Below are positions 7,643 through 50,243 of a DNA stretch of 64,000 bases, piece by piece. The stretch is from Escherichia coli (GTDB lineage: Bacteria > Pseudomonadota > Gammaproteobacteria > Enterobacterales > Enterobacteriaceae): the NCBI RefSeq assembly GCF_022846255.1, contig NZ_AP025682.1; one strand, given 5' to 3'. The translations under genes were made by a program, and so were the position numbers. The notes below the pieces were generated by a model, which saw only the letters and a list, made by a program, of their open reading frames with translations, made no database searches and was not told where the DNA came from. Within the stretch, counting starts at the first letter, position 1, and every line of letters begins with the position of its first letter.

Positions 7643-8653
7643 ATGAAGGCTGCAGTTGTTACGAAGGATCATCATGTTGACGTTACGGATAAAACACTGC
7701 GCTCACTGAAACATGGCGAAGCCCTGCTGAAAATGGAGTGTTGTGGTGTATGTCATACCGATCTTCATGTTAAGAATGGCGATTTTGGTGACAAAACCGG
7801 CGTGATTCTGGGACACGAAGGTATTGGTGTGGTGGCAGAAGTTGGCCCTGGTGTTACTTCATTAAAACCAGGCGATCGTGCCAGCGTGGCGTGGTTCTAT
7901 GAAGGATGCGGTCATTGCGAATACTGTAACAGTGGTAACGAAACGCTCTGCCGTTCAGTTAAAAATGCCGGATACAGCGTTGATGGCGGGATGGCGGAAG
8001 AGTGCATCGTGGTCGCCGATTACGCGGTAAAAGTGCCAGATGGTCTGGACTCGGCGGCGGCCAGCAGCATTACCTGTGCGGGGGTCACTACCTACAAAGC
8101 CGTTAAGCTGTCAAAAATTCGTCCAGGACAGTGGATTGCTATCTACGGTCTTGGCGGTCTGGGTAACCTCGCCCTGCAATACGCGAAGAATGTCTTTAAC
8201 GCCAAAGTGATCGCCATTGATGTCAATGATGAACAGTTAAAACTGGCAACCGAAATGGGTGCAGATTTAGCGATTAACTCACGCACCGAAGACGCCGCCA
8301 GAATTGTGCAGGAGAAAGCCGGTGGCGCTCACGCAGCGGTGGTGACAGCGGTAGCTAAAGCTGCGTTTAACTCGGCGGTGGATGCTGTCCGTGCAGGTGG
8401 TCGTGTCGTGGCTGTCGGTCTGCCGCCGGAGTCTATGAGCCTGGACATCCCACGGCTGGTGCTGGATGGTATTGAAGTGGTCGGTTCGCTGGTCGGCACG
8501 CGTCAGGATCTCACCGAAGCCTTCCAGTTTGCCGCCGAAGGCAAAGTGGTGCCGAAAGTCGCCCTGCGTCCGTTAGCGGACATCAACACCATCTTTACCG
8601 AGATGGAAGAAGGCAAAATCCGTGGCCGTATGGTGATTGATTTCCGTCGCTAA
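7643..8653 (+). CDS. adhP: zinc-dependent alcohol dehydrogenase (propanol-preferring)
   Basis: 336-aa product [11 protein letters not shown]... with GHEGIGVV zinc-ADH motif. Confidence 0.95.
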
Positions 8654-8798
8654 GAGGTCTTTGCTGCGACTGCCATGTTCGGGTCGCAGCATCGCACACT
8701 CTCCAACATGAAATGGCTAAATGGATTATTGTTGCGTAGGAAGGAACAATAATGATAGTGTTCCTGGTGAAGGAACGCTACTGAGAGTAAAGACACTG

Positions 8799-9083
8799 AT
8801 GAAAATGGCCAATCCTCCCCGCCCGGGAGACATTATTCAGGAATCACTGGACGAACTTAATGTCAGCCTGCGCGAGTTTGCCAGAGCAATGGAAATTGCT
8901 CCCTCAACGGCAAGCCGATTGCTGACCGGAAAAGCAGCTTTGACGCCAGAAATGGCAATTAAACTTTCCGTGGTGATCGGCAGTTCGCCGCAAATGTGGC
9001 TGAATCTGCAAAACGCCTGGAGCCTGGCAGAGGCTGAAAAAACGGTGGATGTGTCGCGACTGCGCCGTCTGGTTACGCAATAA
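8799..9083 (+). CDS. yddM: HTH (XRE-type) antitoxin-like DNA-binding protein, HigA-like
   Basis: About 94-aa product [45 protein letters not shown]... with a helix-turn-helix; exact start uncertain (track ORF begins at 8721). Confidence 0.8.
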
Positions 9084-9084
9084 A

Positions 9085-9112
9085 AAAATGGCGCTTCTTA
9101 AAGCGCCATTTT
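9085..9112. terminator. bidirectional Rho-independent terminator between convergent yddM and fdnI
   Basis: 12-bp perfect inverted repeat aaaatggcgctt / aagcgccatttt flanked by an A-run and a T-run. Confidence 0.6.
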
Positions 9113-9133
9113 CAGCTTAAAGTTCAAAAGAGA

Positions 9134-42189: not shown

Positions 42190-42363
42190 TTAAAACAGAG
42201 AAAACAACAGCGCCACCGGGAAACTCATCGGCCATGTTGCCCCCACCAGAAAGGCGCTTAAGAAACGGATGCGTTTCTTATCGTGAGAAAGAAACCAGGT
42301 GATAAGAAATGCGATTGCTGCCATAACCGCATAAAAAACAAGCATATGTTGATAGAGAGACAT
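42190..42363 (-). CDS. ortT: small membrane toxin OrtT (orphan toxin related to TisB)
   Basis: 57-aa hydrophobic product MSLYQHMLVFYAVMAAIAFLITWFLSHDKK...; track ORF has a 22-codon upstream extension. Confidence 0.8.
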   Translation of the reverse strand: MSLYQHMLVFYAVMAAIAFLITWFLSHDKKRIRFLSAFLVGATWPMSFPVALLFSLF

Positions 42364-49828: not shown

Positions 49829-50032
<204 letters not shown>

Positions 50033-50243
50033 TTCAATAAAGTGATCGTGACTATTTAATGGCGAAGTTTACCTCCGTGTGTAATGTGCTCGAAAATAGC
50101 ACTAAATCGCCGCAACGGCAGAATGCAATGCAAAATCAGGAAGGAAGATTCCAGAATTTCTTTGCTCTAATTTGCAAAACTGAATAATAACCTCAAGAAA
50201 CGATCGGCATCATAGCGGCAAAAGGTTAGAAAAAGGTGGCGGG

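Follow-up and report, generated by a model that had tools for sequence, protein, structure and literature searches.

The HigA-family protein YddM of Escherichia coli: a probable antitoxin retained with its putative operators after loss of the HigB toxin gene

The stretch of Escherichia coli DNA analyzed here, 64,000 nucleotides long and referred to as the window, contains the maeA-adhP-yddM-fdnIHG region in an orientation reversed relative to K-12. Across the first 25 kb of the window, the nearest complete RefSeq genome reaches at most 98.3% identity. The plus-strand gene adhP (7643-8653, stop codon at 8651..8653), which carries this name in the annotation of all matching genomes, is followed on the same strand by yddM (8799..9083), encoding a protein of 94 amino acid residues that profile, PDB and selection evidence characterize as a HigA-family antitoxin, or Xre-type HTH protein. 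Between the two genes lie 145 bp, the figure that an earlier sequence-only reading of this DNA had given as approximate. Downstream of yddM, a bidirectional terminator hairpin at 9085..9112 (AAAAAATGGCGCT-TCTT-AAGCGCCATTTT; -16.2 kcal/mol, z -5.8) is common to the convergent genes yddM and fdnI; terminator-like matches of this hairpin in Rfam are weak and sub-threshold. A match to the region with yddM was obtained in 5,413 of the 5,426 complete E. coli genomes.

The yddM-fdnI interval (9084-9133 in the window, 1185-1590 in locus L003, and likewise in loci L004 and L002) varies in the copy number of a unit of about 178 bp, in which REP/BIME-like palindromes are accompanied by a further copy of the hairpin. 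The unit is absent from the window and from strain C7, occurs once in O157 and ExPEC XM, and is present as two tandem copies in K-12. In E. coli TUM2330, an IS200/IS605 transposase gene is situated inside the adhP-yddM-fdnI stretch, and one further genome (H30) matched the fdnI end of the query only.

With 95.3 bits against TIGR02607, the profile of HigA family addiction module antitoxins (cut-off 47.7), YddM is a member of this family, and it also matches PF01381 HTH_3 (39 bits, cut-off 23). The RefSeq annotation of yddM is likewise HigA family antitoxin. YddM shares 93 of its 94 residues with the crystallized antitoxin HigA of E. coli CFT073 (PDB 2ICP/2ICT), the sole difference being H6P. 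One identical YddM protein, WP_000781370.1, is encoded in K-12, in B1 and B2 strains and in E. albertii; the H6P exchange (window 8814-8816) sets the window against this common protein, and proline at position 6 is also found in the homologues of Cedecea, Buttiauxella and 'Enterobacteriaceae bacterium 89'. The yddM frame is open upstream to an ATG at 8721, which would give a protein of 120 residues. This extended form was rejected, since the homologues and the crystal structure start at MKMAN and the ATG at 8721 lies upstream of the inferred promoter.

When the intact HigB encoded at the same site in other strains was compared with the whole 64-kb window by tblastn (word size 2, E≤100), noise only was returned, with nothing credible within 8654-8798. 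The gap had been described as containing at most a 14-codon reading frame. Longer frames do exist, namely a 25-codon ATG frame at 8675-8752, from which the internal ATG at 8708 yields the 14 codons, and a 48-codon GTG frame on the minus strand. None of these, nor the extended yddM frame, is HigB-like; thus the length limit falls and the lack of a toxin-like frame stands. In the B1 haplotype the ATG at 8708 is replaced by ATT, so that the 14-codon frame is not conserved, and an Rfam search gave no match inside 8654-8798. On these two grounds a small gene or RNA in the gap was rejected. A remnant of HigB in the gap was also rejected, because of the tblastn noise and a local DNA alignment at the level of shuffled sequence. 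An intact toxin gene directly upstream of yddM, which would have contradicted the sequence-only reading, is not present in the window, and neither is a complete type II HigBA system, defined by an intact PF05015 gene adjoining the antitoxin gene. Taken together, the profile score of YddM and the absence of HigB support the previous description of a solitary HigA-like antitoxin without its cognate toxin.

Further toxin-antitoxin components are located elsewhere in the window. Between ydcR and yncJ, a hicB fragment on the minus strand (49832-50098) encodes residues 50-138 and is 84% identical to HicB from a related strain. The fragment had been recognized before, and hicA is absent beside it; a second toxin-antitoxin pair of the window has thus been left without its toxin. 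A check of the window also found ortT intact on the minus strand (42193-42363).

Allele counts among the 5,426 complete E. coli genomes revealed a toxin-less spacer of the window type in 4,075, K-12 included. Strains bearing higB at this site, with which the window can be compared, exist as well (1,331 of 5,426). Here higB comprises 279 bp, encodes a product of 92 residues and overlaps yddM by 1 nt; examples with the 92-residue frame overlapping yddM are ExPEC XM, UTI89, the type strain ATCC 11775 and NRG857c. The 92-residue HigB, filed for B2 as WP_000605675.1, scores 63 bits against PF05015 (HigB-like toxin) and aligns end to end with HigB of Proteus vulgaris Rts1 (4MCT_B, E 1e-31), both proteins ending in an ILxYEDYH tail. 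In 545 of the 1,331 higB carriers (about 41%), counted by exact match of a 64-nt context, higB contains a 1-nt frameshift, represented in strain C7 by a single-base deletion at codon 33 (CACCGACTC to CACCACTC).

YddM might also be a working antitoxin whose toxin gene lies at another place in the genome. However, no HigB-like sequence is found within the 64-kb window, the higB query matches at most one place per E. coli genome, and every related toxin-bearing locus has higB directly upstream, overlapping the antitoxin start. A partner at a distant site is therefore highly improbable.

A promoter of the toxin-less type together with a toxin gene is absent among the complete E. coli genomes, where two partial matches turned out to be 29-bp deletions, and pattern scans of metagenomes did not find a toxin-bearing relative of the toxin-less promoter. 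The O157:H7 strain TR01 has an adhP-yddM gap of 145 bp but is mosaic: two stretches of toxin-less sequence, of 34 nt and 45 nt, are replaced at equal length by sequence of the intact allele, the 3' end of higB among it, and the 29-nt core between the exchanged stretches is unchanged. TR01 was rejected as an intermediate allele, since it resembles a reference-guided consensus and is probably an assembly artefact.

A survey with one genome per bacterial species identified 41 loci encoding relatives of YddM. Full-length higB, at the same spacing upstream, is present in E. albertii, the representatives of three other Escherichia species and about 13 Citrobacter, as well as in Cedecea, Buttiauxella, Pluralibacter, Enterobacter sp., Chimaeribacter and Erwinia. 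Most of these higB-yddM loci are followed by fdnI, and in the Escherichia representatives and two Citrobacter adhP is found alongside, too. Orthologues of YddM are thus paired with a HigB gene immediately upstream in E. coli B2, E. albertii, Citrobacter and others. By its sequence, YddM is the antitoxin half of an old chromosomal HigB-HigA pair, and its identity with the partner of the intact B2 HigB suggests that it could neutralize HigB by direct binding. Because higB-yddM occupies the same site in related species, the pair is an old resident of this chromosomal position and the toxin-less state is derived.

Decay of higB beside an intact antitoxin gene was also observed independently in other lineages, by an internal deletion in Citrobacter sp. 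FP75 and by a frameshift in C. portucalensis A60. In two Xenorhabdus, higB is frameshifted or partial and the antitoxin gene intact.

Within the 145-bp gap, a pattern search located two putative operators on the plus strand, O1 (GTTGC-N7-GGAAC, 8731..8747) and O2 (GTTCC-N7-GGAAC, 8760..8776), the latter also indicated by alignment and an inverted repeat. O1 overlaps the -35-like sequence TTGCGT (8732-8737) and is embedded in a perfect 9-bp inverted repeat (ATTATTGTT/AACAATAAT, 8725-8753). The candidate -10 hexamer GATAGT (8754..8759, plus strand) was located by cross-genus alignment and stands 16 nt after TTGCGT, at a position where the homologues display GATAAT, TATACT or TACACT. Directly behind it follows O2, which lies over the transcription start expected near 8766-8770. 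Palindromes bracketing the -35 and -10 elements are the usual layout of an autoregulated toxin-antitoxin promoter. A scan for consensus promoters gave nothing at threshold in this region, GATAGT remaining below it. Throughout the 64 kb, the motif GTTSC-N7-GGAAC occurs only at O1 and O2 (0.26 expected), and the O1/O2 region folds as two strong hairpins (z -4.4).

The promoters of 32 alleles from eight genera (Escherichia, Citrobacter, Cedecea, Buttiauxella, Pluralibacter, Xenorhabdus, Chimaeribacter and Erwinia) were aligned, and 31 of them share the architecture GTTGCG-N5-NGGAAC-N11/12-GTTCC-N7-GGAAC with constant half-sites and variable spacers. Moreover, a binding site of the sigma-70 holoenzyme has been assigned to yddM in K-12 (PMC3946193). 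The arrangement suggests that the gap represents the retained higBA promoter-operator, complete in the window, and that YddM may bind the O1 and O2 palindromes in its own promoter.

Both ends of the gap differ from the toxin-bearing alleles. Behind adhP, a stem-loop on the plus strand (8662..8691; -18.1 kcal/mol, z -2.1) is formed by 9-bp arms (TGCTGCGAC/GTCGCAGCA) and a loop of 12 nt, as seen from the inverted repeat and the fold. The sequence 3' of this stem-loop reads CTGTTTTGCG in toxin-bearing alleles and TCGCACAC in the window, so that a short T-run, which is found in all toxin-bearing Escherichia alleles, is missing. At the other end, a segment of 22 nt on the plus strand (segment B, 8777..8798) occupies the position at which intact alleles have the ribosome-binding site of higB and the complete gene of 279 bp; it contains a weak Shine-Dalgarno-like run, GAGAG (8783-8787). 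These 22 nt before the yddM start are nearly identical in the toxin-less haplotypes of the window, K-12, O157, O111 and EC707, and this near-identity across all sampled toxin-less haplotypes argues for loss of higB by one deletion event.

Relative to the B2 allele, the spacer of the window has diverged much more strongly than the sequences on either side. Over the final 500 bp of adhP, 498 of 500 positions agree, and in yddM 278 of 285, whereas of the spacer only 8729-8776 can be aligned (39/48). Segment A (8692..8728, plus strand), which holds the 14-codon frame, has no detectable counterpart in the intact allele; in local alignments on both strands, it and segment B matched the intact allele no better than shuffled sequences did. 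Accordingly, the exact deletion junction cannot be placed: a MAFFT junction at a shared ATGAA and an alternative junction that keeps the last 20 nt of higB are both weak placements. Segment A shows weak similarity to Citrobacter promoter-upstream sequence only, and the operator block is as near to Citrobacter (41/48) as to Escherichia.

The operators themselves are conserved in their half-sites and variable between them. In about 1,061 B1-type genomes the 11-nt spacer of O1 is exactly inverted (GCGTAGGAAGG to CCTTCCTACGC), and since O1 is palindromic, the inversion preserves the operator. In O111:H8 the inverted spacer (window 8734-8744) is flanked by the perfect 9-bp arms mentioned above. The spacer of O2 differs in every toxin-less haplotype sampled, with unchanged half-sites. 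Its first four bases (8765-8771 being the whole spacer) read TGGT, CAGT, CAGA and TGAT among the haplotypes of the window, L003, L004 and L050, and this variation sits over the expected transcription start. In strains AST215 and EC16, a 29-bp deletion between AAGGAAC direct repeats (window 8748-8776) has removed the -10 element and O2, leaving yddM intact.

The divergence of the spacer may possibly be explained by import from an unsampled donor or by repeated template-switch mutation in quasi-palindromes. The toxin-less allele may be a rebuilt control region and not a plain deletion of the resident Escherichia operon, a reading that we put forward only tentatively. The four half-sites and the -10 element are constant and their surroundings replaced or scrambled, a pattern that would suit an antitoxin adapted to work as an independent regulator; such changes could stem from repeated template-switching at the quasi-palindromes or from the acquisition of a foreign promoter.

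The coding sequence of yddM appears to be under strong purifying selection in the toxin-less state. Among seven short toxin-less alleles, 9 synonymous and 3 non-synonymous variable codons give a pN/pS of about 0.07. A neutral relic, that is, a functionless remainder after toxin loss which is bound to decay, might at first be suspected, because decay is expected to remove the toxin before the antitoxin. In this window hicA and half of hicB are missing, higB has decayed independently in Citrobacter sp. FP75, C. portucalensis and Xenorhabdus, and O2 together with the -10 element is deleted in some strains. However, such a relic is hardly compatible with the low pN/pS, with a protein that phylogroups A, B1 and B2 and E. 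albertii share unchanged, with the occurrence of the yddM region in nearly all complete genomes (see above), or with half-sites that are unchanged amid strongly diverged surroundings. In addition, Gao et al. 2018 (PMC6237786) list ten candidate regulators for which ChIP-exo peaks were obtained in K-12, which itself lacks the toxin; YddM is one of them, and also one of six regulators put through a motif search. According to these published data, YddM binds DNA in vivo in K-12. We thus regard a neutral relic as quite unlikely. A Keio screen found the yddM deletion strain hypersusceptible to epetraborole, in an experiment without complementation (PMC12457515).

Selection on yddM could also be exerted by incoming toxins. 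In this case the orphan YddM would act in anti-addiction or immunity, neutralizing HigB acquired from plasmids or by recombination and thereby guarding the cell against post-segregational killing. Toxin-less strains and carriers of an intact HigB encode the same YddM protein, which should therefore still neutralize that HigB. Toxins of the PF05015 type are found on 538 plasmid records, of which Escherichia accounts for 99. However, leaving aside three records with at least 90% identity, no plasmid homologue exceeds 56.5% identity with the chromosomal HigB, which renders cross-neutralization uncertain, and the one record of at least 90% identity that was inspected is a 385-kb 'plasmid' bearing this same adhP-fdnI locus. 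A protective role against foreign HigB is therefore rather doubtful as the reason for the persistence of yddM.

YddM is probably a retained HTH regulator that represses its own gene and stems from the antitoxin of an ancestral Rts1-type higB-higA operon. In the proposed course of events, a chromosomal operon of this type would have been situated between adhP and fdnI, and a single deletion in an ancestor of E. coli would have removed the whole higB reading frame, sparing the operon promoter, the two palindromic operators and the antitoxin gene. The YddM dimer would still bind O1 and O2, block RNA polymerase and so repress its own promoter, and yddM would have been kept as a small stand-alone DNA-binding regulator of the Xre type, owing to a benefit that is independent of the toxin. 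One observation stands against autoregulation: in AST215 and EC16, where the -10 element and O2 are gone and yddM is intact, autoregulation is dispensable, at least in those strains. As the T-run after the adhP hairpin has been lost, yddM might alternatively be expressed by read-through from adhP.

The complete pair corresponds to TA20 (ParE-2/HigA-2) of NRG857c (Bustamante et al. 2020, PMC7232551), whose coordinates in that genome match yddM and the toxin gene exactly; HS and K-12 were reported to keep the antitoxin alone at the TA20 locus (PMC7232551). The window shares with the HigB-HigA systems of CFT073 and NRG857c the locus, the flanking genes, the four operator half-sites and the antitoxin at 93 of 94 residues. 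Compared with these, higB (279 bp) and some 40 bp further upstream are absent from the window, the spacer is unalignable outside the 48-bp operator block, and the T-run after the adhP hairpin is missing.

HigB-HigA of the Proteus vulgaris plasmid Rts1 (PDB 4MCT/4MCX; HigA-operator complex 6CHV) resembles the complete E. coli alleles in the toxin-first gene order, in HigB over its full length as described above, in HigA (E 1e-18 with YddM) and in the two palindromic sites at the promoter. The E. coli system differs in being chromosomal, with a neighbourhood kept across genera, whereas the Rts1 system is plasmid-borne; the operator sequences differ as well, and the window lacks the toxin.

A comparable case in K-12 is YbaQ (PDB 2EBY), a HigA-like HTH protein without a toxin in K-12 and HS, the PF05015 toxin partner of which occurs only in some pathogenic strains (PMC7232551). 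In the ChIP-exo study, YbaQ was likewise reported as a DNA-binding regulator (PMC6237786), and it is a sequence relative of YddM (E 1e-9). However, YbaQ is encoded at another locus and, with 113 residues, represents a distant paralogue.

It was already known that yddM is an orphan in K-12 and that CFT073 and NRG857c carry the complete pair, and the structure of the antitoxin had been published. The present analysis adds the frequencies of the alleles, the direction in which the locus has changed, the architecture of the operators that were kept and the unusual divergence of the spacer. The locus thereby offers a clean, datable case of a chromosomal toxin-antitoxin pair coming apart, toxin first, with higB deleted in about 75% of the strains and frameshifted in another 10%, and with antitoxin and operators that appear to be under selection. 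These findings should be useful for the reading of 'orphan antitoxin' annotations and of studies that treat YddM as a transcription factor; they leave current views unchanged.
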